From Escherichia phage REP4: 64,000 nt of DNA. Every line of letters starts with the position of its first letter. Position 1 is the first letter of the stretch. The stretch lies in the sequence record OQ174503.1, one strand, 5' to 3'. The notes beneath the pieces were generated by a model. That model saw nothing but the letters and a program-made list of their open reading frames with translations, searched no databases and was not told the origin of the DNA. Shown here piece by piece: positions 1,305-63,904 of the stretch. A program made the position numbers and the translations under genes.

Positions 1305-1574
1305 TTAATTGAACAGTGGAGCGATGCGTTTCAGAAGAGTAGCAGCACCTTTGGCAAATTTTACATCATGAAAAACAGTTTCTTCTTCCGTTACAACACG
1401 AACTTTAATATTTTCACAATCCCAATTTTTACGAACAATCTTCAAAAGCTGCAGTAAATCTTTACATTCAGCAATATCGATAACACATCCACGAGAATCT
1501 TCCATTATCGCACGATAACCGTAAGCCAGACCATAATCGTTGAAAGATTGCTCGATGATAATTAAGTTTTCCAT
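1305..1574 (-). CDS. Hypothetical protein (89 aa from ATG at 1574)
   Basis: ORF track trimmed to second Met; start preceded by conserved cassette leader TTGGAGAATAAA-ATG. Confidence 0.55.
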   Translation of the reverse strand: MENLIIIEQSFNDYGLAYGYRAIMEDSRGCVIDIAECKDLLQLLKIVRKNWDCENIKVRVVTEEETVFHDVKFAKGAATLLKRIAPLFN

Positions 1575-1675
1575 TTTATTCTCCAAGTTGTTTTCTGTAT
1601 CAGTAGTTGATATTGATATAGTACCATAATCAACTACTGATGTATATAGTTTTATGAAAAAATTTTAAACTTTAT
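1575..1675 (-). repeat. Promoter-leader cassette copy (degenerate -35) with 11-bp inverted repeat CAGTAGTTGAT / ATCAACTACTG
   Basis: Shares tatcagtagttgata...tatagtacca...ttttatgaaaaaatttt with copies at 21050, 47550, 62373. Confidence 0.5.
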
Positions 1676-2790: not shown

Positions 2791-3291
2791 TTATCTCATT
2801 TCAATAAAATCTATGAGTTCAGCATGTGATTTGCGGAACATTACTTGGTGCACGCCAATGATAACTTCATCTTCAGGAACTTCGTATACAGCGAGATAAA
2901 ATCCTTTAGAAGATAATTCTTCCCGCTCTTCTCGTGTGAACCATCTCATCATATCATATTCACTAGCGAAAGCAAAATGATAAAGAGCTATAAACCATCC
3001 GGGAATATGATATTCTACTCCAACATAATCTTTCTTGAACTTAGTATTAATTACTATATTAGCGTTTTTAACTAATAGTTTATCTTCATGTGGTAAAGGA
3101 ATTCTTTTATTATTATCGCTATGATGCATAAAATTAGGTCTGTCATAACCTACGTGTAATAGCCACTCTTCGCTCCATGAATCGATTATACTCCTGTACG
3201 GCGTTATTTGAACACAAAGATTTCGACGTATTGTTATAGCATCTTCACAATCAAGAATACTAAACGATGATTCAACACGATAAATTTTCAT
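2791..3291 (-). CDS. Hypothetical protein (166 aa from ATG at 3291)
   Basis: ORF track trimmed to internal ATG with GAGGA Shine-Dalgarno; longer start would overlap promoter. Confidence 0.55.
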   Translation of the reverse strand: MKIYRVESSFSILDCEDAITIRRNLCVQITPYRSIIDSWSEEWLLHVGYDRPNFMHHSDNNKRIPLPHEDKLLVKNANIVINTKFKKDYVGVEYHIPGWFIALYHFAFASEYDMMRWFTREEREELSSKGFYLAVYEVPEDEVIIGVHQVMFRKSHAELIDFIEMR

Positions 3292-3318
3292 TTTATTATC
3301 CTCAGTAGCTATAGTGTT

Positions 3319-3348
3319 ATAATACCACAACTAACCGAGGAAGTAAAC
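3319..3348 (-). promoter_or_regulatory. T4 early-type promoter (minus)
   Basis: gtaaac at 3343-3348, -10-like ataata at 3319-3324, 18-nt spacer. Confidence 0.5.
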
Positions 3349-3354
3349 AACTTT

Positions 3355-4038
3355 TTATCGTTTTGTTGGAAGAGACAGAGGATCGCACTCTTCCTCTGAC
3401 GGAGCATCTTCAAGACCCATAGCATATCGCAAAGCATACTTCATCATCAGGATGTCTTTCGCACAGTCATGAATAGAATCATGTGCAACGAATCCATCTA
3501 AAGTTCCCTTTGGAAGAGGACACGTGGTCATATCACGAACAAGAAGAAGTGCTTCAATTCTGGTACGAATATCACGCTGATTCCAGAATTTACATGGTTC
3601 TAACTTAAATGTGTCAAGTTCATTCTCAGAAACGCCATTAAGACGTTGAATATCGCGAATGAGATCGACTAAAATTGGAAAATCAAACGACATTCCACGG
3701 CACCAGCCTTGAGATTTCCAAGGATCGATGTTATGTGCATTGATGTAATCATTAAATTTTGCAATACCATCGATAGTGCTCACATCTTCATCTGATGGTG
3801 CAATATTTTTTCGAGCTTCGGGAGACTGATTTTTCCACCATTCGATAGTGCTTTTAGTAAAAAGACGATGTCCTTTTTGGCTTTTTAAATCAAACTTGAT
3901 TTTAATGCCGCGTGAAACTAATTCATCAAATGTTTCAACTACTTCTGGATTAGGGTCAAAGGCAATAACAGCCAAATCAATAACAGCTGCCTTTTCACCG
4001 CTTCCCATTGTTTCAAAATCTATAATAAAATCAAACAT
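3355..4038 (-). CDS. dexA: Exonuclease A (DEDD-type 3'-5' exonuclease), 227 aa
   Basis: Length and N-terminal FDFIIDFETMG exonuclease motif; position next to dda as in T4. Confidence 0.8.
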   Translation of the reverse strand: MFDFIIDFETMGSGEKAAVIDLAVIAFDPNPEVVETFDELVSRGIKIKFDLKSQKGHRLFTKSTIEWWKNQSPEARKNIAPSDEDVSTIDGIAKFNDYINAHNIDPWKSQGWCRGMSFDFPILVDLIRDIQRLNGVSENELDTFKLEPCKFWNQRDIRTRIEALLLVRDMTTCPLPKGTLDGFVAHDSIHDCAKDILMMKYALRYAMGLEDAPSEEECDPLSLPTKR

Positions 4039-6400: not shown

Positions 6401-7147
6401 TTATCCTCGGATAAGTTTAAAAATTGAACAATTTAGCGGGTATCCTCTTTTCAGTTTAAGTTTATCAATAAAAGACAAGTTTTGATACCGCTCTACACCT
6501 TGAATAATTTTATCACACATATCATATTGCATTTCTGCTTCTGACAACTTTTTCACAGTTTTCCAATCCGAGCCTTTAAGAAGAACGTTCAATTTAACAA
6601 CTTCAGCGCCTTCTGCTATACGAGAACCATCAATACGAGCTTTGAGTGCTACAATCGTTAGCTTAATGTCAGAGGTTTGTTTTGATTTAGAAAGCTGAGA
6701 AATGTGTTCAATTCGGTTTTCACGTTTTTTCTGTATAGCTTTAATTTGATTATAAGTCTTTTTGATTTTAGCCCATTTCTTTTCATCTAAATTTAGTTTA
6801 TGAACTTTTTTCGCAGATGAACGACCAATTCGTAAAGCAAATAAATCACGCTTTTCAATCAACTCTTCTAAAGTATAATCAGAACGAAATGTATTATACT
6901 TTTTCTTTACTGCAATAACATTCCCTTTAATGTATCCAACGTTATTATCAAAACGTTCTAATGATAATTTCTCTCCTTCAATACGATTATCAAAAGGTTC
7001 TCCCGAGTAAGCGCAAACTTTCTGATCTAAAATGTTCTTAATGTAATTGAAGTCTAAGTTAAAATCTTTAGAACGTCTTTTAGCAGATGCCTGAGTATGC
7101 TCTAAACGACGTGTAATTTTACGAATTTGATTTTTAGACAGTTTCAT
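6401..7147 (-). CDS. srd: Basic lysine-rich protein (248 aa), Srd-like by position
   Basis: Position between dda.1 and modA and ~250-aa size as recalled for T4 srd; no direct motif evidence. Confidence 0.4.
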   Translation of the reverse strand: MKLSKNQIRKITRRLEHTQASAKRRSKDFNLDFNYIKNILDQKVCAYSGEPFDNRIEGEKLSLERFDNNVGYIKGNVIAVKKKYNTFRSDYTLEELIEKRDLFALRIGRSSAKKVHKLNLDEKKWAKIKKTYNQIKAIQKKRENRIEHISQLSKSKQTSDIKLTIVALKARIDGSRIAEGAEVVKLNVLLKGSDWKTVKKLSEAEMQYDMCDKIIQGVERYQNLSFIDKLKLKRGYPLNCSIFKLIRG

Positions 7148-10614: not shown

Positions 10615-10644
10615 ATTATACCATTCTCATTTTGGAAAGTAAAC
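10615..10644 (-). promoter_or_regulatory. T4 early-type promoter with extended -10 (minus)
   Basis: attatacc at 10615-10622 (rc TGGTATAAT), gtaaac at 10639-10644, 18-nt spacer. Confidence 0.6.
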
Positions 10645-10651
10645 CAGTAAA

Positions 10652-10677
10652 ATGAAAAAGGACTCCCGGAGGAGTCC
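10652..10677 (-). terminator. Intrinsic terminator downstream of soc
   Basis: Minus-strand hairpin GGACUCC-UCCG-GGAGUCC followed by UUUUU. Confidence 0.7.
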
Positions 10678-13155: not shown

Positions 13156-13320
13156 TTACTCTTCTTTTTCTTTAGATTCCTCTTTTTTCTTTTTAGGAAT
13201 CTGTTCAGGACCTTTATTTACTACAGCGCCTGACGTTGTTCCAGTAGAGATATTTTCAGGATTACCACCTGAATCGCCAGCTACCATATCTTCTTTAATA
13301 AATTCTTTATATGTTTTCAT
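13156..13320 (-). CDS. Small protein (54 aa) with capsid-targeting-like N-terminus MKTYKEFIKE
   Basis: Hand-translated; AGAGG Shine-Dalgarno; stop 2 nt before primase ATG. Confidence 0.5.
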   Translation of the reverse strand: MKTYKEFIKEDMVAGDSGGNPENISTGTTSGAVVNKGPEQIPKKKKEESKEKEE

Positions 13321-13321
13321 A

Positions 13322-13948
13322 TTAACCTCTATTCATAAAAGCATTAAAAATTTGGTCATCAATAGAAACATTCACTTTAGACTGTTTTTCTGATGGTAAT
13401 TCATATCCACATATTACAATTTTATGATCAATATCAAAATACACAGAAGCAATATGATTAATGATGTTTTCAGTAAAGTCTAAATCAACATCAATATCTT
13501 TTTGACCACAGCCCAAAGGATAAATAATGCGAGTAATTCGATTATCTTTAACAAAGATTCCACCGATATACTCTGTGCTGCGTTCAAAGTCTACACGCCG
13601 ACGAAATGAAAAATATTCAGGCTCTTTATGAGCTCGGCTCATAGGACACAACGAGTAACTAGAATAAGAGATGTCAAATCCTACGCCTTCAATATGAGCC
13701 AAATTATCATGATTAAACCAATTATAATCGTACGCCAAGTCCATTAGATTATAATATGTGAAAGGCACCGGATTAACATCATTAGTCACAAGCATGTAAT
13801 TAGCAACTGCTATAATTTCATTATTTTTAACGAATACAAACCGTGATTGATGTGAATGACCTGGACCTGCGTTTTCACGATTAATGATATAACACTGGGC
13901 ACCTTTATATTTGTACGTGTCTTTGCACTTGTGCATTTGATAAAGCAT
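13322..13948 (-). CDS. Hypothetical protein (208 aa)
   Basis: ORF track. Confidence 0.6.
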   Translation of the reverse strand: MLYQMHKCKDTYKYKGAQCYIINRENAGPGHSHQSRFVFVKNNEIIAVANYMLVTNDVNPVPFTYYNLMDLAYDYNWFNHDNLAHIEGVGFDISYSSYSLCPMSRAHKEPEYFSFRRRVDFERSTEYIGGIFVKDNRITRIIYPLGCGQKDIDVDLDFTENIINHIASVYFDIDHKIVICGYELPSEKQSKVNVSIDDQIFNAFMNRG

Positions 13949-14241: not shown

Positions 14242-14346
14242 GATAATCTCCTCAGTAGTTTATGTTTATATAGTATCTCAATTTTCAACAAAAGTAAACA
14301 CTAGTAGAAGCAAACAGACAAATTGCAATAATTGGTGATTTCAGTT

Positions 14347-14541
14347 TCATTCTTCTCCTCCTTCATGTTGATGAACATATTCTTTTTCAAGTCTAGAGCA
14401 CAAGTTTTCATATTCAACTAATAAAAGTGAATCAAGTGCGTTATTTCTATGCTGACACCGTTCTTGTAAAGAATCCATCTCTGAACGTTGTTCTTGTGTT
14501 AATAATTGATAACCTGATACTTTAGACATTTTGTTCTCCAT
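14347..14541 (-). CDS. Hypothetical protein (64 aa)
   Basis: ORF track. Confidence 0.45.
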   Translation of the reverse strand: MENKMSKVSGYQLLTQEQRSEMDSLQERCQHRNNALDSLLLVEYENLCSRLEKEYVHQHEGGEE

Positions 14542-14565
14542 TTACTCGTTTGTTTTGATAGGTCT

Positions 14566-14594
14566 ATAATAACATGTTTAAAACAAAAGTAAAC
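14566..14594 (-). promoter_or_regulatory. T4 early-type promoter (minus)
   Basis: gtaaac at 14589-14594; tataat/ataata at 14565-14571. Confidence 0.5.
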
Positions 14595-14848
14595 TATTTT
14601 ATTTCCTCAAGTTCGTTAATCAATAAAAGTTCTCTGACGCTAAAAACAAAGAAAAATGTGTTCCCATCAACCAGAGCATGACCGCTAATAGAACACCCTC
14701 TGCGGAATTTAGAAACTTCACAATCTAGAACTGTAAAAGGTTTTAATCCTATGACTTTAGCTGTGCGTCTATTCAGTTCACAACCACTCGCGAATTTTTC
14801 CAAATCTTCTTCTGATTTAAACTGATATTCTCTATTAACTAGCATCAT
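14594..14848 (-). CDS. Hypothetical protein (84 aa)
   Basis: ORF track. Confidence 0.5.
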   Translation of the reverse strand: MMLVNREYQFKSEEDLEKFASGCELNRRTAKVIGLKPFTVLDCEVSKFRRGCSISGHALVDGNTFFFVFSVRELLLINELEEIK

Positions 14849-14879
14849 TTTCTTTTCTCCGCGATTAGCTGATAGAATT

Positions 14880-14909
14880 ACTATAACACAACTCTATCAG
14901 CTTGTAAAC
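14880..14909 (-). promoter_or_regulatory. T4 early-type promoter (minus)
   Basis: gtaaac at 14904-14909; -10-like actata at 14880-14885. Confidence 0.45.
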
Positions 14910-14911
14910 TA

Positions 14912-15196
14912 CTATTTTACTAGCATCAATAGCTGTTTCTCTAACTTGACGATTTTACGAAAGTATCTTTTGCATTGGCGAATCTGTCGCTTCGTAGGGC
15001 GCACAGCAAACTTAATAAATTCCACTCGACCAAATGGAGGGCTTTCTTCTGCTGGAATATCTAACACCAATTCCCACGTATCTGCAACAAGTGCTTTGAA
15101 TTGAGTATTTTTCCTGACATTATATGGAGTAGGTTTAAATAAAACAATATGCATATTATCCTCGGCAATCCACTTCACATACTTTCTTGTCATCAA
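14912..15196 (-). CDS. Hypothetical protein (94 aa)
   Basis: ORF track. Confidence 0.5.
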   Translation of the reverse strand: MMTRKYVKWIAEDNMHIVLFKPTPYNVRKNTQFKALVADTWELVLDIPAEESPPFGRVEFIKFAVRPTKRQIRQCKRYFRKIVKLEKQLLMLVK

Positions 15197-20812: not shown

Positions 20813-21049
20813 TCAAATACAAGTAGTAATTACTCCAGTAGTGCTTACACAGGTATTACCTAATTGAACACCCAACGTTCCATTAGTATTCATATGAAGA
20901 TTATCATCAATTTTTGTTGATACTTTACCATTCATGTGAATAATAGTATTAGATTCAATCACATTCTGAGTGTCATTTTCAATATCAATAAATGGAACAG
21001 TTGCTAATGCAACTAAACACGCTGCTAAACAACCATAAACAATTTTCAT
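20813..21049 (-). CDS. Small secreted protein (78 aa from ATG at 21049)
   Basis: MKIVYGCLAACLVALATVPF signal peptide; start preceded by cassette leader. Confidence 0.55.
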   Translation of the reverse strand: MKIVYGCLAACLVALATVPFIDIENDTQNVIESNTIIHMNGKVSTKIDDNLHMNTNGTLGVQLGNTCVSTTGVITTCI

Positions 21050-21140
21050 TTTATTCTCCAAATCCGTATCAGTTGATAGTTGTATAGTACCATGGAAGAA
21101 CGGGAATGTAAACAGTTTTGTGAAAAAAATTTTTAATGAA
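21050..21140 (-). repeat. Promoter-leader cassette copy with early promoter (GTTTAC at 21108-21113, TGGTACTAT -10)
   Basis: Near-identical to 47550..47650 and 62373..62470; ends at TTGGAGAATAAA-ATG. Confidence 0.6.
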
Positions 21141-21195
21141 TTTACAGGACCTAGAATCATCTATTTTTCCTAAGTATAGATTTATATTACTTGTA

Positions 21196-21218
21196 TGAAA
21201 AAGGGACCCGGAGGTCCC
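21196..21218 (-). terminator. Intrinsic terminator downstream of gene 43
   Basis: Minus hairpin GGGACC-UCCG-GGUCCC followed by UUUUU. Confidence 0.7.
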
Positions 21219-21231
21219 TAGATTTATTCTA

Positions 21232-24008: not shown

Positions 24009-24266
24009 TTAAATTTCTATTGTACGACGCGATATAACGGACTTGCCATCTTTATTTGTGGTTTTGATAATCGCATGAAATGCGAGCTGGTGCGGGTAAA
24101 CTAATCGTTGGAATTCTTTTTGGAATTCTATTTGTTTATCTTCCGGGAGGTCAAAAACCAGTTGGGTAGAAGACAGACCATATGTATGTTTTAGATTTTC
24201 GAATATTAGAAAAGCTTCGGTAAACTGAATCTCTGATTGCGTCATATAATTTGCCTTAATTACCAA
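24009..24266 (-). CDS. Hypothetical protein (85 aa; may start at internal Met)
   Basis: ORF track. Confidence 0.5.
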   Translation of the reverse strand: MVIKANYMTQSEIQFTEAFLIFENLKHTYGLSSTQLVFDLPEDKQIEFQKEFQRLVYPHQLAFHAIIKTTNKDGKSVISRRTIEI

Positions 24267-35180: not shown

Positions 35181-35349
35181 GGAGTTTAATTTCCTTAGCA
35201 ACTGAACTAAATACAGCACGATCACAAATCATGTGTTTGTTCCATTTAAGTACAGTATAATGAACATCTAGATCATCTACTGCTGTAACAATAACAATAT
35301 GTCCGTTAACACGATAATACTGATCCCTTTTAATCTCTTTATCAACCAT
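35173..35349 (-). CDS. Small hypothetical protein (58 aa)
   Basis: Hand-translated MVDKEIKRDQYYRVNGHIVIVTAVDD...; GAGGAA Shine-Dalgarno. Confidence 0.45.
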   Translation of the reverse strand: MVDKEIKRDQYYRVNGHIVIVTAVDDLDVHYTVLKWNKHMICDRAVFSSVAKEIKLHG

Positions 35350-35379
35350 ATCAATTCCTCAAAGGCAATTCATATGTTA

Positions 35380-35409
35380 ATAATACCACAGTTTGAACTT
35401 GTTGTAAAC
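35380..35409 (-). promoter_or_regulatory. T4 early-type promoter (minus)
   Basis: gtaaac at 35404-35409; ataatacca at 35380-35388 (rc TGGTATTAT). Confidence 0.5.
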
Positions 35410-35489
35410 AACTTTGTGAAAATTATTTTAGGGAATGATAAGAAGTGAATGATAGTTAGAATGGTAATATACAGAATGTGAGAAAGAAA

Positions 35490-45589: not shown

Positions 45590-46117
45590 TTATGCGAGTA
45601 CCGTCTTTAACCGTTCTTCAAACTTCCGAAGAGTATTTTGGCGTTCAGCTCTTTGCTTTTTGTAAGTTTCAATACGCTCTGAAATGAGAGAGTATCGTTC
45701 ATTTACTGATTCTTTCATAAAATCAGGAATTTCACGAGAAGCTTTAATCTCATCAAATTTATCAATAACAGCTTGCTCTTCAGCAATTAAGTTATCATAC
45801 ATTAAAATATCTTTCTTGATGAACTCAATATCTTCTTGAGTTACACGAGATAATTTAGATGCTTTATCCTTTTTGTACTGTTCGTTAGTATCACGAGACC
45901 AGTGTAATGTACGATTTTTATTCGTATTTTTGTAAATTTCGACAATACCAATCTCATCAATAATAACGATCCAATTCCAACGGGATTTGTAAATTTGTCC
46001 TCCATCAACAGTGATTTCACCTCCGATTGAGATGTCGTTAAAGAACTTACTCTGTGCTTCAGATTTAAATTTACCATCGTTGTAATTTACCAGGTTGAAA
46101 ATATCTTTAGCGTTCAT
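45590..46117 (-). CDS. Hypothetical protein (175 aa from ATG at 46117)
   Basis: ORF track trimmed; GGAGG Shine-Dalgarno. Confidence 0.55.
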   Translation of the reverse strand: MNAKDIFNLVNYNDGKFKSEAQSKFFNDISIGGEITVDGGQIYKSRWNWIVIIDEIGIVEIYKNTNKNRTLHWSRDTNEQYKKDKASKLSRVTQEDIEFIKKDILMYDNLIAEEQAVIDKFDEIKASREIPDFMKESVNERYSLISERIETYKKQRAERQNTLRKFEERLKTVLA

Positions 46118-46174
46118 TTTTGTTCCTCCGTAGTTGATAGTTGTATAGTACCACAGAGGAACAGTCTTGTAAAC
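46118..46174 (-). repeat. Partial promoter cassette copy (GTTTAC at 46169-46174, TGGTACTAT -10)
   Basis: Shares gttgatagttgtatagtacca core with full copies. Confidence 0.5.
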
Positions 46175-46176
46175 CA

Positions 46177-46491
46177 CTAAAAGAAACTTCTTTCACAATT
46201 TTTTCCACTGAACCATGCGCTCACTGCTTTCTTAGTCTCAGGAGCAGTGTTATCCATAAACCATTCAAAGGCAGCCTTTTTATGATTCTGGAGGGCTTCT
46301 CGGGCTTTAATCTGCTCACGGTCTATTAACACTAACATATGAGCCTTTCTTGTCACCATGGGCTTCTTATGATTTTTTGAATACTCCCAATCATTTGTCC
46401 ATCGCATCGTTGTTGCGAACTGAAATACTGCTTCTTTAATTTTAGTTTCGTAAATTTCACGAGCCTTTGAGTATAACATCACTACCTCCAT
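46177..46491 (-). CDS. Hypothetical protein (104 aa)
   Basis: ORF track. Confidence 0.5.
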   Translation of the reverse strand: MEVVMLYSKAREIYETKIKEAVFQFATTMRWTNDWEYSKNHKKPMVTRKAHMLVLIDREQIKAREALQNHKKAAFEWFMDNTAPETKKAVSAWFSGKNCERSFF

Positions 46492-46580: not shown

Positions 46581-47549
46581 TTATTTCAGAAGAGTAACCT
46601 CAGCAATTTCTTCCCAACCGTTTTTGTCGGTCATAATAAAGTCAGCAAGATAAAGAGCAGTACGCAGTGAAACATTGCGTAAACGGTTAACATTAACTTT
46701 CATCCATGATAATGCTTTATAAGTTTCTTCATCAGAAAGACCACGCTTTTGCATCATGTCAGTTGAAAGAATAACATCTTCAACCCTGACCATAATTTCT
46801 TCATTAGTGTGAACACCCAAATCCAAATAAACCGAGCGGGACACTAATGCTTGTAAATGTGGAGCAAGTTTAGTACCACGGTCTAATTCGCGGTCAATGT
46901 CAACGTTTGTGATAAAAACAATCGTTCCTTTAAATTCAAACTCACGCTCAATGCCTTTTTCTTCTAAGTAAGAAGACGCAGTGCTCCAGCAGACTTTACG
47001 GATCTCTCCAGTGTCCAGAGCAGCTTTTAGAAGATTAAGAATGTCCATATCAGAGAAAACATCCACATCATCAATCAAAAGGACAGAATTCTCTTCACGA
47101 TTATTCCAAAGCTGCTCATAAAGACCAATACCAGAGATTTTACCATTAATGCTTTTATATTCAATGTATCCATTATCATTTGCTTTATTTAAAGCTTTAT
47201 CTAAAGAATACGTTTTACCAATACCTGCTGCGCCAGAGATAATTAATGAACGAATATTTCCATTAATAATACCATTCGTCATCATTCCCATAACATTAAA
47301 TCTTTTATTAATGCGGGTTTTCATATCTTCATACGATTCTTTAACTTCTTCAACTTTTACACCATCATATGAAATATCTGATTTGTAAACCCAAACACCG
47401 CGACGTTTACCGTCAATTTCAACAAAAACTTTACCATCTCCTTGTGCATCTACCGGAGCATTATCTGGGAACCATTCGCCTAAGAGCTCAAAAGTTCCAG
47501 AGATTTCTTTACCGAAGTAGATACCCTTATTGATAGTTACAGTTTTCAT
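46581..47549 (-). CDS. AAA+ ATPase with N-terminal domain (322 aa from ATG at 47549)
   Basis: Walker A GAAGIGKT, Walker B VLLIDDVD, sensor FITN; start preceded by cassette leader. Confidence 0.7.
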   Translation of the reverse strand: MKTVTINKGIYFGKEISGTFELLGEWFPDNAPVDAQGDGKVFVEIDGKRRGVWVYKSDISYDGVKVEEVKESYEDMKTRINKRFNVMGMMTNGIINGNIRSLIISGAAGIGKTYSLDKALNKANDNGYIEYKSINGKISGIGLYEQLWNNREENSVLLIDDVDVFSDMDILNLLKAALDTGEIRKVCWSTASSYLEEKGIEREFEFKGTIVFITNVDIDRELDRGTKLAPHLQALVSRSVYLDLGVHTNEEIMVRVEDVILSTDMMQKRGLSDEETYKALSWMKVNVNRLRNVSLRTALYLADFIMTDKNGWEEIAEVTLLK

Positions 47550-47650
47550 TTTATTCTCCAAATCCGTATCAGTTGATAGTTGTATAGTACCATAAAGCTT
47601 TATGCCTGTAAACCGTTTTGTGAAAAAAAAAAAAATTTGAAATAAAAAAA
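47550..47650 (-). repeat. Promoter-leader cassette copy (GTTTAC at 47608-47613, TGGTACTAT -10) plus A13 tract
   Basis: ~90% identical to 21050..21140 and 62373..62470. Confidence 0.6.
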
Positions 47651-47652
47651 AG

Positions 47653-47670
47653 GGAGCCCGAAGGCTCCCT
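47653..47670 (-). terminator. UUCG hairpin terminator after nucleotidyltransferase gene
   Basis: Minus GGGAGCC-UUCG-GGCUCCC followed by U8. Confidence 0.75.
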
Positions 47671-50758: not shown

Positions 50759-50962
50759 TTAAACTCTCGTATTATGATCGATAATTTCATCAAGAAACAT
50801 ATCTAAAGCTTCTACAGCATTATCAACTTTAGCTTCAAGTTCTTCAGCGCCTTTATTTGCAATGCCTGCCGAAAACCAAGCAAAGTCACTAAGTTCCTCG
50901 TCTGCTTTGCGAATTAAAGCTACCAATTCTTTAATTTTATCTGCTTGTTCGATACTAATCAT
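50759..50962 (-). CDS. Hypothetical acidic protein (67 aa from internal ATG)
   Basis: ORF track trimmed. Confidence 0.45.
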   Translation of the reverse strand: MISIEQADKIKELVALIRKADEELSDFAWFSAGIANKGAEELEAKVDNAVEALDMFLDEIIDHNTRV

Positions 50963-51150
50963 TATTCCACCACATATGAAAGAGAGAATATTGCACACGC
51001 CATATGAGTTGCAGCTTCATCACACATATCATAACGTTTCTTAAGAAGTTTTTCAAGTTCTTCACTAGTAACTTCATCCATGTCGACGAAAAAATCACCA
51101 TTAATGATGACGTAGATATTTCCTTCTTGATTAAGTGCTTCAATTTTCAT
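50962..51150 (-). CDS. Hypothetical protein (62 aa from ATG at 51150)
   Basis: GAGGAG Shine-Dalgarno. Confidence 0.5.
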
Positions 51151-51215
51151 GATGTTCTCCTCTTTATCTGATGGTTGTATAGTATCACAGCTCAAATGGA
51201 AAGTAAACCGGTAAA
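51151..51215 (-). repeat. Partial promoter cassette copy (GTTTAC at 51203-51208, -10 TACTAT)
   Basis: Shares gttgtatagta core; sits right after a terminator. Confidence 0.5.
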
Positions 51216-51223
51216 ATGAAAAA

Positions 51224-51241
51224 AGTCTCCCGAAGGAGACT
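51224..51241 (-). terminator. UUCG hairpin terminator
   Basis: Minus AGUCUCC-UUCG-GGAGACU followed by UUUUUU. Confidence 0.7.
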
Positions 51242-54883: not shown

Positions 54884-55345
54884 TCATTGAGTTTTAATTA
54901 CTGCTTTAGAAGCCTTTCCTGGTAAACGACGACTGTTGATAATTGCCATCCTGCATTGAAGCGACGGGTCTTTGAACTTCGCATTAGGTTTACAAACTGT
55001 AAATCCAAGCCAAAGATTTCCATCGGTGATTTCTAAACGCCCAGGACGATATTCAACCCCATCAATAAAATCCTCGTCAATGTCAGGACGCGGAGGCATA
55101 CTTAGGAATTCATTAACTTCTAAAACATGGTCTTTTATTTTATGGAATAATTCAAAAACATATGTCTCATCAATCTCCCGTTGAATTGCGCGATCAAGAA
55201 GATGCTGAGAATATTTTAGATGAAACGATGAGACCCCTGCTGCTTTTGATGCCTCACGAATCTCATTGTTAATTTGACGAAACTCCGACTCAAAGTGACG
55301 ACGGAGCTTATTTCGACGGATAAAAACTTCTGTGTTGATAGTCAT
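54884..55345 (-). CDS. regB: Endoribonuclease RegB (153 aa)
   Basis: MTINTEVFIRRNKLRRHFESEFRQINNEIREASKAAG... as recalled for T4 RegB. Confidence 0.8.
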   Translation of the reverse strand: MTINTEVFIRRNKLRRHFESEFRQINNEIREASKAAGVSSFHLKYSQHLLDRAIQREIDETYVFELFHKIKDHVLEVNEFLSMPPRPDIDEDFIDGVEYRPGRLEITDGNLWLGFTVCKPNAKFKDPSLQCRMAIINSRRLPGKASKAVIKTQ

Positions 55346-55404
55346 GTTATTCTCCTCTTAACTGATAGAAAAATTATACCACAGTCAAGAGGAAAAGTAA
55401 ACAG

Positions 55405-57538: not shown

Positions 57539-58012
57539 TTATTTGAACGATTTAACGTACTGAATAGAACCTTTACTATTCACGAAAGCGATTTTACCAT
57601 TTTTATTATACATGGTAGCAGTACGCTGATAGCCATAAGTTTGCTTACCAGATTGATAACCAACTAATGCAAAATTATCTTCACCCATTTTATTCTGTTT
57701 AGCGCGAATGCGTTCATGACCATGTGCCATAAGAACCTTAGCATCACCAGTTGCAATGGATCGACGAGTTTTTTCATCTTCAACTGTATTAACAAAGTCG
57801 TCAAATGAATCAAATTTAGCATGAGATTTATTATACAGTTTTCCATCTACTGCATAATTATATCCCTGTACATCCATCTCAACTTCTGTACCATCATCCA
57901 ATACAGCAGTGATTTTCTGTCCTTTTTTAAATTTCAAAAGATCAGTAAAAGATTCAGCAATAATTTGAGAATTAATAGTTGCTTCAGTAATAAATTCTTG
58001 ATATGTTTTCAT
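57539..58012 (-). CDS. Internal-protein-like head protein with capsid-targeting N-terminus (157 aa)
   Basis: N-terminal MKTYQEFITE with I-x-E protease-site pattern; ipII/ipIII locus next to e. Confidence 0.65.
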   Translation of the reverse strand: MKTYQEFITEATINSQIIAESFTDLLKFKKGQKITAVLDDGTEVEMDVQGYNYAVDGKLYNKSHAKFDSFDDFVNTVEDEKTRRSIATGDAKVLMAHGHERIRAKQNKMGEDNFALVGYQSGKQTYGYQRTATMYNKNGKIAFVNSKGSIQYVKSFK

Positions 58013-58028
58013 GTGTATCCTTTAATTT

Positions 58029-58346
58029 TTATTCTTTAGGGAAGTTTTTAGAATATGCATCATAAAGCTTATTTCCAATACGGCGGAAAACTCTAGCCGC
58101 AAAACGATTTTCTGGGTTTTTAATCATGATTTGCATCATATAAGTACCCGCGTCAGAAAGAGCTTCTTCATAGTACCCGTTAATTTCTTTAAGAGTCCTA
58201 CGTTTACCACCAGGACCATCAACAGTGATTTTCCATTTACCTGTAGAAGTGCGACTTGGCGGCTCAACTTGTTCAATCCAGATATAACCGCCTTCTACAC
58301 GTTGTCCTTGGGCAGATTCTGCAATAAATTCTTTAAACGTTTTCAT
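58029..58346 (-). CDS. Internal-protein-like head protein with capsid-targeting N-terminus (105 aa)
   Basis: N-terminal MKTFKEFIAE; adjacent to lysozyme gene. Confidence 0.65.
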   Translation of the reverse strand: MKTFKEFIAESAQGQRVEGGYIWIEQVEPPSRTSTGKWKITVDGPGGKRRTLKEINGYYEEALSDAGTYMMQIMIKNPENRFAARVFRRIGNKLYDAYSKNFPKE

Positions 58347-58417
58347 ATGGTTCCTTTAAATATTTTAATTAGTAACTATGAATATACTATCACAGTTCTA
58401 GGAGAAAGTAAACAACT

Positions 58418-59386
<969 letters not shown>

Positions 59387-62108: not shown

Positions 62109-62372
62109 TTATTTCATATTATTGAAATATTCTTCTGCGATTTCATCGTTATCGTGGTAAACTTTAGAAGACAGTTTAACATAACCTTCAGCAGTGAACA
62201 TATTAATCACAACTTTTACAGTATACCACTGACCGTCTTCATTACCCATTACTGCGTAAGTTTCAAACATCGGATGGTCAGGACCGATGACTTTAATATC
62301 ATTCACTGTACGACCGAAATCTTCTGAAACGCATTTCATAAAGAAGTTGAACAGTTCGCCGTAATTATCCAT
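62109..62372 (-). CDS. Hypothetical protein (87 aa from ATG at 62372)
   Basis: Start preceded by cassette leader TTGGAGAATGAA-ATG. Confidence 0.55.
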   Translation of the reverse strand: MDNYGELFNFFMKCVSEDFGRTVNDIKVIGPDHPMFETYAVMGNEDGQWYTVKVVINMFTAEGYVKLSSKVYHDNDEIAEEYFNNMK

Positions 62373-62470
62373 TTCATTCTCCAAGTTGTTTTTCTGTATC
62401 AGTAGTTGATAGTTGTATAGTACCACGGAAGAACAGGGATGTAAACAATTTTGTGAAAAAATTTTTAAAA
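62373..62470 (-). repeat. Promoter-leader cassette copy (GTTTAC at 62441-62446, TGGTACTAT -10)
   Basis: Near-identical to copies at 21050 and 47550. Confidence 0.6.
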
Positions 62471-62579
62471 AGTTTTAGGGAATTCTAGGGAAGGGAGGGG
62501 CAATTAAAGGATAGGATAATATATTATAAAGGGTAGAAACTAAATGATGCCTAGAGAGGTCCAGAAAGGCCTAGATATC

Positions 62580-62604
62580 AAAAAGCCCTATCATTTAGAT
62601 AGGG
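62580..62604 (-). terminator. Intrinsic terminator downstream of 62613..63176
   Basis: Minus CCCUAUC-UAAAU-GAUAGGG then C + UUUUU. Confidence 0.6.
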
Positions 62605-62612
62605 ATTTAAAA

Positions 62613-63176
62613 TTATTTACCTAGTTTAGTTATTATAGCTTCTGCGGCAGCTTTTAGTTTAGATGCGGTGTTAATACGATTTTTAATTTCAGTATACGCA
62701 TCGCCAAGAACGTCAAGGCTATCAGAATAAACGCTTACACTATTGCGTTCGCTATTTGAAATAGAACCTTTAGTTTTACGATCAAAATCAATGTACACGT
62801 CTTGAAGATCATGGGCTGCCTTCTTTGCATCATCCAATGCATCAAGAGCTTTATTCAAAGCATTAACGTATTTTTTAGTGTCGAACATATTCTTAGAAAT
62901 TTTAACAGGCGCACGTTCAGGAGTAGCTAAGGCAGATTTAGGAACCTGAGCGCCAGATGCCAGTTTCTTAGAAATTTTGAAAAATGCTTTATTGAATTTA
63001 TTTTCTTGACTCATCGTAAAAGAACTATTATCGATGTTATACATTTCAATAGCTTTAGCTTTCCACTTAAGAAAATCGCCACGGTCTTTTGGGTCCAATT
63101 GGAAGAATACTTTAGTAAGTTCTGCTTCAGATGGTAATTTTGCTGCTTCGGTTAAAAATTCGGCATAAGTTTTCAT
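62613..63176 (-). CDS. Internal-protein-like protein with capsid-targeting N-terminus (187 aa)
   Basis: N-terminal MKTYAEFLTEA. Confidence 0.55.
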   Translation of the reverse strand: MKTYAEFLTEAAKLPSEAELTKVFFQLDPKDRGDFLKWKAKAIEMYNIDNSSFTMSQENKFNKAFFKISKKLASGAQVPKSALATPERAPVKISKNMFDTKKYVNALNKALDALDDAKKAAHDLQDVYIDFDRKTKGSISNSERNSVSVYSDSLDVLGDAYTEIKNRINTASKLKAAAEAIITKLGK

Positions 63177-63266
63177 TTAAAATCCTTGAAATAATCTATC
63201 GGTTGGTTATTAATTATTTATTACTTTGTTATTATCCGTAACAGCGTTATCCGAGTGATTCAAACT

Positions 63267-63293
63267 AAAAAGCCCCAACCTTTCGGTCGGGGC
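63267..63293 (-). terminator. GAAA-tetraloop terminator; 33-nt exact duplicate of 63826..63852
   Basis: Minus GCCCCGACC-GAAA-GGUUGGGGC followed by UUUUU. Confidence 0.7.
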
Positions 63294-63301
63294 TAAGAAT
63301 G

Positions 63302-63775
63302 TTATTTGATTTGTTTAGCAGACCAAATGCGGTCTTTGATGATTTTTTGGAGATCTTCAACATACTCTAGGTCATGAGCATGTGGATTATCTTTGAAACT
63401 ATAGGCACGGGCTAATTTTTGGCCTTCGGTTTTAATTACTAAAAGCTCTTTAAGGATAGCTTCATATTTAGCGATAATTCCTTTAACAATATTTTTTTCT
63501 TGTGCAGCTTTAGGATCTGCTTTAGGAGCAGGTTTACCCGAAGCCTTTGCAAAAGCAGCACCAGTAGCAACTAAACTTTTCCAGGCCATACTAACCGCAT
63601 TTCCTGTAAATCCTTCTGCTTTCATGTCGCGAGCAAACTGGAATCGTGATTCGTCAGAAGCATCTTTATAGGAATATTTACCCGCTGCAATGGCTGCTTT
63701 TGCGACAGCTTGAATTTCGGTGCTAGATGCTTCATTTAACACCGCTTCATTTAAAAATTGAGCATATGATTTCAT
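63302..63775 (-). CDS. Internal-protein-like protein with capsid-targeting N-terminus (157 aa)
   Basis: N-terminal MKSYAQFLNEA; Ala/Lys-rich. Confidence 0.55.
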   Translation of the reverse strand: MKSYAQFLNEAVLNEASSTEIQAVAKAAIAAGKYSYKDASDESRFQFARDMKAEGFTGNAVSMAWKSLVATGAAFAKASGKPAPKADPKAAQEKNIVKGIIAKYEAILKELLVIKTEGQKLARAYSFKDNPHAHDLEYVEDLQKIIKDRIWSAKQIK

Positions 63776-63815
63776 CTTATTTCCTGTTTTAATTCGTGGA
63801 TTTAATATACTACTA

Positions 63816-63823
63816 TATTTATA
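63816..63823 (-). promoter_or_regulatory. T4 late promoter TATAAATA (minus)
   Basis: Plus tatttata at 63816-63823, ~40 nt upstream of ATG 63775. Confidence 0.5.
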
Positions 63824-63825
63824 CT

Positions 63826-63852
63826 AAAAAGCCCCAACCTTTCGGTCGGGGC
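63826..63852 (-). terminator. GAAA-tetraloop terminator (duplicate of 63267..63293)
   Basis: Identical 33-nt sequence ctaaaaagccccaacctttcggtcggggctaag. Confidence 0.7.
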
Positions 63853-63904
63853 TAAGCCTTGCGGCAACCTTGTCGGGGTTCCACCTGCTAAGGCAAGTGT
63901 TTGT

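Follow-up and report, generated by a model that had tools for sequence, protein, structure and literature searches.

The window, a 64-kb stretch (34.5% G+C) of Escherichia phage REP4 (OQ174503.1), is a segment of a Tequatrovirus (T4-like) genome. It shares 97-98% identity with Shigella phage SH-1, Escherichia phage SA21RB and Shfl2 and is colinear with ~5.5-71 kb of the T4 map, from goF/cef through gene 43 and the nrdC cluster to e.8. A sequence-only reading of this DNA had pointed to six sites at which a promoter and leader of about 90 bp seemed to recur in front of unrelated genes. All six exist at the coordinates it gave, with their features reading 5' to 3' on the minus strand, which carries all the cassettes and nearly all genes of the window (Table 1).

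Table 1. Cassettes, downstream genes and associated structures in the 64-kb window
Feature	Position	Strand	Details
Cassette c1600	1572..1672	-	-35 ATATAC 1642-1647; core with 3 mismatches 1605-1626; GGAGAATAAAA 1574-1584
c1600 inverted repeat around the -10		-	13 nt, perfect; ATCAGTAGTTGAT 1629-1641 and ATCAACTACTGAT 1599-1611
89-aa ORF behind c1600	1305..1574	-	phrog_3720
Cassette c21050	21047..21140	-	A/T tract 21114-21140; -35 GTTTAC 21108-21113; TGG+TACTAT 21084-21092; core 21071-21092; predicted +1 ~21077; GGAGAATAAAA 21049-21059; ATG 21047-21049
78-aa ORF behind c21050	20813..21049	-	phrog_4189; predicted membrane/secreted N-terminus
Intrinsic terminator after gene 43	21194..21219	-	AGGGACC-TCCG-GGTCCCT + T run; ~88 nt upstream of c21050 -35
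Early promoter of gene 55.6 homologue (c35367)	35347..35434	-	repeat-tool match 61%; not counted in the family
Cassette c46118	46115..46199	-	-35 46169-46174; exact core 46132-46153; own leader ACGGAGGAACAAAAATG; no upstream terminator
c46118 hairpin		-	spacer arm 46150-46163 paired with SD arm 46121-46134; dG -22 kcal/mol, z -5.6
nrdC.8 homologue behind c46118	45590..46117	-	175 aa; phrog_2274
Cassette c47550	47547..47645	-	-35 47608-47613; spacer palindrome ATAAAGCTTTAT; core 47571-47592; GGAGAATAAAA 47549-47559; ATG 47547-47549
nrdC.11 terminator	47643..47670	-	AGGGAGCC-TTCG-GGCTCCCT + T8; 37 nt upstream of c47550 -35; PeSL-type stem-loop
nrdC.10 homologue behind c47550	46581..47549	-	322 aa; phrog_1250
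Partial cassette c51151	51148..51241	-	terminator 51224-51241; -35 51203-51208; TGATACTATACAACCATCAGAT 51166-51187; SD GAGGAG; ATG 51148-51150
mobD.5 homologue behind c51151	50962..51150	-	62 aa; phrog_3024
Cassette c62373	62370..62475	-	-35 62441-62446; core 62404-62425; leader TATCA-ACTAC-TGATA; GGAGAATGAAA 62372-62382 (1 mismatch to RegB consensus); ATG 62370-62372; no upstream terminator
e.8 homologue behind c62373	62109..62372	-	87 aa; phrog_2678

Anatomy and extent of the cassette family

A typical copy consists of an A/T-rich tract, GTTTAC, 18 nt and TACTAT with a TG at -15/-14, which in sigma-70 notation is a TTTACA-17-TACTAT promoter with a TGn-extended -10. The -35, spacer and extended -10 are there as had been described, except that the -35 of c1600 is ATATAC and that c51151 has TGATACTAT. 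The predicted +1 lies ~7 nt after the -10, giving leaders of 13-38 nt, and in every copy a Shine-Dalgarno sequence (SD; GGAG, GGAGG or GAGGAG) stands 6-8 nt ahead of the ATG. Both the leader end TTGGAGAAT(A/G)AAATG and the palindrome TATCA(AC or ACTAC)TGATA are confined to four copies, c1600, c21050, c47550 and c62373. As a candidate for a conserved RNA hairpin the palindrome was rejected: in c1600 and c62373 it amounts to only 4-5 pairs rich in A/U, it lies outside the minimum-energy fold of c21050 and c47550, it is broken in L005 and L014 (TAATA), and c46118 and c51151 do not have it at all.

The repetition itself is real. A 22-nt core, TGGTACTATACAACTATCAACT, is present exactly in four copies and with 3 mismatches in a fifth, and a 40-mer running from the -10 to the SD is identical at 21053-21092 and 47553-47592, none being expected from 100 shuffles. 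Upon gapped global alignment from -60 to the ATG, identity was 0.80 for c21050/c47550, 0.79 for c21050/c62373, 0.81 for c1600/c62373 and 0.69 for c47550/c62373 (without gaps c1600 is shifted by 2 nt against the other copies, which makes its gapless values meaningless). Hence, on proper alignment the four best copies, at 69-81% over ~95 nt, do not fall to chance similarity, shuffled pairs having a mean of 0.52 and a maximum of 0.61. In the stretch between -10 and +16, identity is 81% among the four core copies, versus 41% for the window's unrelated early promoters. Some 15 of the 22 positions of the core agree with the consensus that early promoters of the window have in general, so that part of the identity reflects functional constraint and not shared descent. 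The copy c51151 is a borderline member (gapped identity 0.54-0.65), and the early promoter at 35347-35434, proposed as a seventh member by the repeat tool, was rejected, being at background level and no closer than unrelated early promoters. The family takes in only ~5-6 of the ~23 early promoters in the window, the rest sharing just the consensus.

The genes behind the cassettes are indeed unrelated, as had been claimed: the seven downstream ORFs represent seven PHROG families, no two of them being similar to each other, and only nrdC.10 has Pfam hints, in the form of weak AAA/STAND NTPase hits. Rfam covariance models gave no match at gathering score anywhere in the window, and a full-text literature search with the sequences of the core and leader returned nothing relevant.

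Outside REP4, a 95-nt cassette query matched 543 phage records, essentially all of them Tequatrovirus, at 6-9 places each. T4 has orthologous cassettes ahead of imm.1, nrdC.8, nrdC.10, mobD.5, e.8 and an 11-codon remnant in the motB-cef interval, together with three copies beyond the range of the window: at 163652 (motA, exact core), at 166786 (ndd.4) and at 167065, where an intact cassette with an 8-codon remnant lies upstream of ndd.6. The latter two adjoin ndd.4-ndd.6, the locus at which PeSL exchange (ndd.4/.5) was illustrated by Comeau et al. 2014 (PMC4122927, Fig. 6A). In nine genomes and contigs taken together, at least 12 different ORF starts have this core fused to them.

RegB-type leaders and resemblance to known early promoters

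Three of the copies share a leader, GGAGAATAAAA-TG, that agrees in every base with the cleavage site published as optimal for T4 RegB/S1, GGAGAAUAAAA, for which the consensus is GGAGRAYARAA (Durand 2006, PMC1702504). Where 0.46 exact matches to this consensus would be expected in the window, there are four, each on the minus strand and directly at an ATG, and three of the four are the leaders of c1600, c21050 and c47550, at the SD; the leader of c62373 and the SD of regB itself are one base off. The RegB target is a single-stranded 11-mer in a translation initiation region; the leaders of these cassettes are predicted to be unstructured and may be cleaved. In place of the RegB optimum, c46118 and c51151 carry GGAGG and GAGGAG, respectively, and nrdC.8 of T4, the orthologue of the gene at c46118, was reported to be moderately cleaved by RegB (Durand 2006, PMC1702504). 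MotA, too, is an early product whose mRNA is cut by RegB at the SD, and the T4 motA early promoter, which carries the exact core, provides an experimental anchor for the family.

Combining the sequence match with published T4 work, we infer that the REP4 copies are active promoters with the +1 at the predicted position, that they are cleaved by RegB and that recombination gave rise to their variants. The A/T-rich, UP-like tract, the TTTACA -35 and the TGn-TACTAT would recruit host sigma-70 RNA polymerase directly after infection, and the four leaders ending in GGAGAAU(A/G)AAAUG would supply an SD that doubles as an optimal RegB/S1 endoribonuclease site. A gene placed downstream would then be expressed in a burst and shut off via cleavage. 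In T4-like phages, cassettes of this kind may provide small genes of recent acquisition with early expression that is immediate and limits itself.

In outline such elements are already known: the cassettes are ordinary T4 early promoters with a published RegB site. They share with T4 early promoters the UP element, -35, TGn, -10 and 'additional regions of consensus' (Hinton 2010, PMC2988021), but only the ~5-6 members noted above belong to the cassette family. They also work like the promoter-early-stem-loop elements (PeSLs) of T4-type phages, described for RB49/phi1 (Arbiol 2010, PMC2839356) and for PST/T4 and nt-1/KVP40 (Comeau 2014, PMC4122927), and are largely the same thing. As in PeSLs, the cassettes are dispersed and intergenic, join an early promoter of the sigma-70 type to an AT-rich tract and to the SD and ATG of a gene, and are concentrated in hyperplastic regions, where they adjoin indels between close relatives; variant ORFs or insertions occur in relatives at c1600, c21050 and c47550, at a rate not statistically above that of other gene starts. 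Six copies conform at the sequence level to the PST/T4 PeSL promoter consensus, TTTACW-N17-TAYWAT (Comeau 2014, PMC4122927), the -35 of c1600 being degenerate.

In the stem-loop the match varies from copy to copy. In PeSLs this element is a terminator that precedes the promoter (Arbiol 2010, PMC2839356; Comeau 2014, PMC4122927), and the palindrome in the leader, which the sequence-only reading listed as part of the cassette, is a different element. Inspecting the upstream regions of seven copies, we found an intrinsic terminator close to the -35 at only two, c47550 and c51151 (the latter at 15 nt), a distant one at c21050 and c35367 (79 nt for the latter), and none at c1600, c46118 and c62373. 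In the strict sense, which calls for an adjacent terminator stem-loop, only some of the copies are PeSLs, and the proposed match to PeSL cassettes stands for the early promoter and leader and for the ndd.4/.5 locus, but for the terminator at two copies only. The REP4 family is, moreover, a sequence-homologous subset, whose 22-nt core and shared leaders go beyond the motif-level definition of PeSLs. The present analysis adds that this subset is truly homologous, with block-wise mosaicism, and that its shared leader equals the RegB optimum.

A related arrangement is the internal-protein locus of T-even phages, in which, as cited from Repoila et al. 1994 by Comeau 2014 (PMC4122927), conserved promoter, leader and N-terminal segments surround variable ORFs. 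That locus differs, as far as this citation describes it, in its repeat family and in that the conserved part reaches into the coding sequence. The internal-protein region of the REP4 window shows the same pattern, with a repeat family designated D4 and breakpoints at 58025-58429.

Mosaicism, insertions and breakpoints

The copies had been called near-identical, which holds block by block (some blocks are 98-100% identical) but not overall, the copies being mosaics. Thus, c21050 equals c47550 over its 3' 55 nt (98%) and resembles c62373 over its 5' 66 nt (91%), with 16 of 18 spacer positions matching between the two, while the 3' leader of c62373 matches that of c1600. The leader segments GATACGGATTT and ACTGATACAGAAAACAACTT are common to different pairs of copies, and the 17 other early promoters of the window lack those spacer and leader segments. 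Since the sharing of spacer and leader segments extends beyond the consensus, the copies are taken to be homologous, and there are signs in the sequences that halves of cassettes may have been exchanged between loci. We regard it as very unlikely that selection for a strong early promoter and a RegB-sensitive leader produced the likeness by convergence, with no common descent or exchange. Such selection would fit a core that is largely the general early-promoter consensus and a leader, GGAGAAUAAAA, that is a functional optimum, but the identity runs through positions of no known constraint (the spacer, GATACGGATTT and ACTGATACAGAAAACAACTT) that the other 17 early promoters do not share, and its block-wise mosaic pattern is typical of recombination.

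Comparison of relatives revealed cassettes that differ at one and the same locus. At the 43/imm.1 locus, the spacer of LF73P3, ATCCCTGTTCTTCCA, is that of e.8, the spacer of ESh34, AAGACTGTTCCTCTG, is that of nrdC.8, and the spacer of T4 is a hybrid. A module of the nrdC.8 type, from the -35 to the SD (54 nt, 1 mismatch), is also found ahead of ndd.4 in phage G8, and in L037 a different -10/+1 block sits amid unchanged nrdC.8 flanks.

The nrdC.11/nrdC.10 junction, at which c47550 lies, measures ~195 nt in the window, T4, KNP1, ES21 and ESh34, and is enlarged by 275 nt (one ORF) in SA21RB, by 722 nt in L017 and by ~1100 nt in LF73P3, the last insertion holding three ORFs, each with its own early promoter. 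The homology breaks off at ...CTATCAA of the c47550 cassette core in SA21RB and L017; in LF73P3 a shared upstream A/T tract is followed by a different early promoter. The nrdC.10 gene retains GGAGAATAAAATG in every case, three different promoters being joined to it at the same SD, and one of the promoters within the LF73P3 insert is a ~75-nt copy of the motA promoter. Separately, the window holds at 14300-14933 two promoter-plus-ORF modules without counterpart in six comparators, with promoters that are not of the family and a right junction exactly at GTTTAC.

Small genes behind the cassettes vary between phages as well. Roughly half of the Tequatrovirus records sampled contain the 78-aa ORF that follows c21050, and where it is missing, as in T4, the cassette is fused directly to imm.1; the indel comprises 246 nt and is bounded by an 8-nt repeat, ATGAAAAT. 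The 89-aa ORF behind c1600 is cut to an 11-codon remnant in T4, ES21, ESh34 and LF73P3, and T4, ES21 and ESh34 share a 200-nt internal deletion in it that starts from just after ATGGAAAA and runs between AAAA repeats just past the start codon.

Taken with the mosaicism, we consider it likely that the copies are immediate-early expression modules complete in themselves, each homologous to the others and occasionally exchanged with them. The copies lie in direct orientation and share blocks of 22-63 nt of identity or near-identity, which should be enough for occasional exchange by the T4 recombination system; the outcome would be mosaic cassettes by gene conversion, swaps of the promoter at a fixed gene, and gain or loss of small promoter-plus-ORF modules. 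As homology patches for the exchange of accessory genes and promoters, the cassettes may bear on the understanding and engineering of the hyperplastic regions that adapt phages to hosts and defences.

The sequence-only reading had gone further and regarded the cassettes as likely recombination sites that shuffle accessory genes, with breakpoints expected at the cassette ends. We examined 68 distinct breakpoints in six relatives, using SD-aware gene starts with the ATG at 21049 added manually. Four breakpoints fell in family cassettes compared to 0.84 expected under a uniform null, but when gene starts were compared with each other, breakpoints hit 3/7 of those with a cassette and ~25-31/111 of the others, a difference that was not significant in Fisher's test with these six relatives. 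Following this control for gene boundaries, the case for preferred breakpoints is weaker than usually implied. Furthermore, two of the three cassette-associated indels, those at c1600 and c21050, are events at 4-8 nt repeats by the start codon and not cassette-to-cassette events, and the deletion junction predicted for recombination between c47550 and c46118 (1439 bp) was found in none of 734 matching records. Many indels of the window are homing-endonuclease genes or lie at cassette-free sites. The earlier interpretation was thus partly supported: it was right in kind, given the mosaics and the three insertions at c47550, wrong on the stem-loop and too strong on recombination sites.

These results leave some room, though in our judgement not much, for a more passive role, in which the cassettes are homologous promoters homogenised by occasional gene conversion that merely happen to stand at gene starts, and are not preferred sites of gain and loss, the indels arising at any gene boundary by microhomology or illegitimate recombination and by homing endonucleases. 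The lack of breakpoint enrichment relative to other gene starts and the missing c47550 x c46118 deletion speak for such a role, as do the c1600 and c21050 indels on AAAA and ATGAAAAT repeats, the T4 copy at 167065, intact yet followed by an 8-codon remnant, and the fact that several T4-specific insertions are seg/mob genes. It is harder to reconcile with at least two independent insertions (SA21RB and L017) that end within the same few nucleotides of one core, with a third (LF73P3) at the same junction that contains the motA promoter copy, or with the three promoters joined to nrdC.10 at one SD. In addition, mini-circles formed by the PeSLs of RB49/phi1, with crossovers between the -10 and the ATG, have been demonstrated (Arbiol 2010, PMC2839356).

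At the other extreme, the cassettes could be parts of a dedicated mobile element, i.e., its ends or attachment sites, with the core or the palindrome as the recognition sequence of a specific recombinase or nuclease that moves it. Paralogs and hundreds of genomes have the 22-nt core in invariant form, and a helper protein has been raised as a possibility for PeSLs (Arbiol 2010, PMC2839356), but the copies are not accompanied by any recombinase or transposase gene, the junctions lie at differing points (core, SD, ATG and -35), the palindrome is broken or absent in several copies and there are no target-site duplications, making this extremely improbable.

Hairpins around early promoters

Folding of the early promoters with their full leaders yielded z < -2.5 for 9 of the 23 foldable regions, and the strong hairpins seen in these folds hold the -10 and +1 in their loop. 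The count was again 9/23 with fixed 73-nt segments, compared to 5% of 112 control gene starts (Mann-Whitney p = 0.008). The 3' arm of the hairpin is the SD itself in c46118, regB and motB.2. In diverged clades the regB hairpin is kept with different arms, CTTGACTG/CAGTTAAG, CTAGTTG/CAACTAG and TGTAAG/CTTACA (pairings taken from per-sequence folds, as the MAFFT alignment mis-registers the 3' arm), and hairpins with differing arm sequences are kept for nrdC.8 and motB.2 as well; the relatives of dmd in IMG/VR were all near-identical. In c1600, ATCAACTACTGAT is the 3' arm of the perfect 13-bp inverted repeat whose 5' arm, ATCAGTAGTTGAT, is the promoter spacer. As the spacer is replaced in other copies, the palindrome of their leaders looks like an orphaned arm.

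We tentatively suggest, while holding it to be rather doubtful, that a sizeable class of T4-type early promoters, including c46118, c1600, regB and motB.2, lies in a conserved hairpin that acts as a translational insulator, and that the leader palindrome is the 3' arm orphaned after recombination had swapped the spacer. In such a promoter the spacer between -35 and -10 would pair with the initial transcribed region, often with the SD itself. RNA reading through from upstream genes would have its ribosome binding site and RegB site hidden, and RNA from the gene's own promoter, starting inside the loop, would be open with a free SD.

Hairpins that sequester a ribosome binding site and contain an internal promoter are known in T4 for e, soc, 49, I-TevI/II/III, segB and mobE (PMC3014915, PMC2988022); in the parts of the literature drawn on here, the published cases for e, soc, 49 and the homing-endonuclease genes involve late promoters, and reviews list the design for genes 39, 25 and 26 as well. 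Like these, the hairpins of c46118, regB and motB.2 place the -10 and +1 in the loop and use the SD as 3' arm. They differ from the e/soc/49/I-TevI hairpins, as these are described there, in that the internal promoter is early and not late, and the three cassette copies most alike are without such a hairpin. If the suggestion is true, it would extend the late-promoter principle of e, soc, 49 and I-TevI to early genes, and the insulator would replace the upstream terminator of classical PeSLs. An upstream terminator was found at 0/9 of the hairpin promoters versus 5/14 of the others (p = 0.12).

Early promoters enclosed in hairpins

Strong inverted repeats (folding score z < -2.5) enclose 9 of the 23 early promoters in the window, as against 5% of the control gene starts at the same threshold. 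In all nine, the loop of the repeat holds the -10 element and the +1, and none of the nine is preceded by an upstream terminator. At regB, motB.2 and nrdC.8 the 3' arm of the hairpin is the Shine-Dalgarno sequence itself, and compensatory changes preserve the pairing across diverged T4-like clades. The nrdC.8 promoter of IMG/VR contig 2974787500 (L037, ~3440-3503) carries a divergent -10/+1 block, TGGTATTATTACCCTATCAACT, flanked by spacer and leader arms identical to those of the window; this arrangement suggests fine-scale conversion within the hairpin loop.

Coordinates of the hairpin promoters, the ORF after gene 43 and the T4 remnant cassettes
Feature	Window span	Window -35	Strand	Compared record
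Hairpin early promoter	55340-55402		minus	
Hairpin early promoter	3291-3348		minus	
Hairpin early promoter	46115-46174		minus	
Hairpin early promoter	1599-1641		minus	
Hairpin early promoter		2243	minus	
Hairpin early promoter		14909	minus	
Hairpin early promoter		15397	minus	
Hairpin early promoter		50396	minus	
Hairpin early promoter		8542	minus	
ORF after gene 43	20813-21160			L001, 20835-21182
T4 remnant cassettes				L002, about 6557-6609; L052 record, 167065

Junctions at promoters and start codons

Two modules, each an early promoter with a small ORF (60-64 aa and 84 aa), occupy 14300-14933 and are missing in all six compared relatives. The left junction of this segment lies where the 61.4 ORF ends and the right one precisely at the GTTTAC of the following promoter; one of the modules has an exact RegB-consensus Shine-Dalgarno, GGAGAACAAAA (14529-14539). 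In T4, whole family cassettes precede ORF remnants of 11 and 8 codons, the counterparts of which are full length in other phages (89 and 87 aa), and the deletions begin directly 3' of the start codon (ATGGAAAA, ATGAAA).

In relatives (SA21RB_049), annotation gives the ORF that follows gene 43 a length of 115 aa, with a start upstream of the promoter. A start at 21049, behind a GGAG Shine-Dalgarno and yielding 78 aa, is far more plausible; the publicly annotated version is therefore probably incorrect.

Other variable segments and shared repeats

An insertion of ~245 nt with a small ORF, between regA and gene 43 (24009-24266), is missing in T4, SA21RB, LF73P3, KNP1 and ESh34; no breakpoint was found there between ES21 and the window. 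T4 also lacks a 1.2-kb segment 5' of the e.8 cassette (62604-63821), bounded by a terminator repeat of 40 nt, the copies of which (63258-63297 and 63817-63856) are 95% identical.

A distinct repeat family (…ATGAAAACGTTTAAAGAATTTATT…) lies at the starts of internal-protein-like genes (57983-58030, 58317-58364 and 13291-13338). The internal-protein-like region is swapped out in several relatives, with breakpoints at 58025-58429, and this variation is the classical IP-locus polymorphism. A terminator-plus-(-35) segment at the promoter 3' of soc (10633-10674) shares 90% identity with 51197-51238 at the mobD.5 promoter, a further promoter half in common. Finally, the spacer of c47550, the cassette of the nrdC.10 homologue, contains a perfect 12-nt palindrome, ATAAAGCTTTAT (47594-47605), which has no evident function and is kept in T4 and other relatives.
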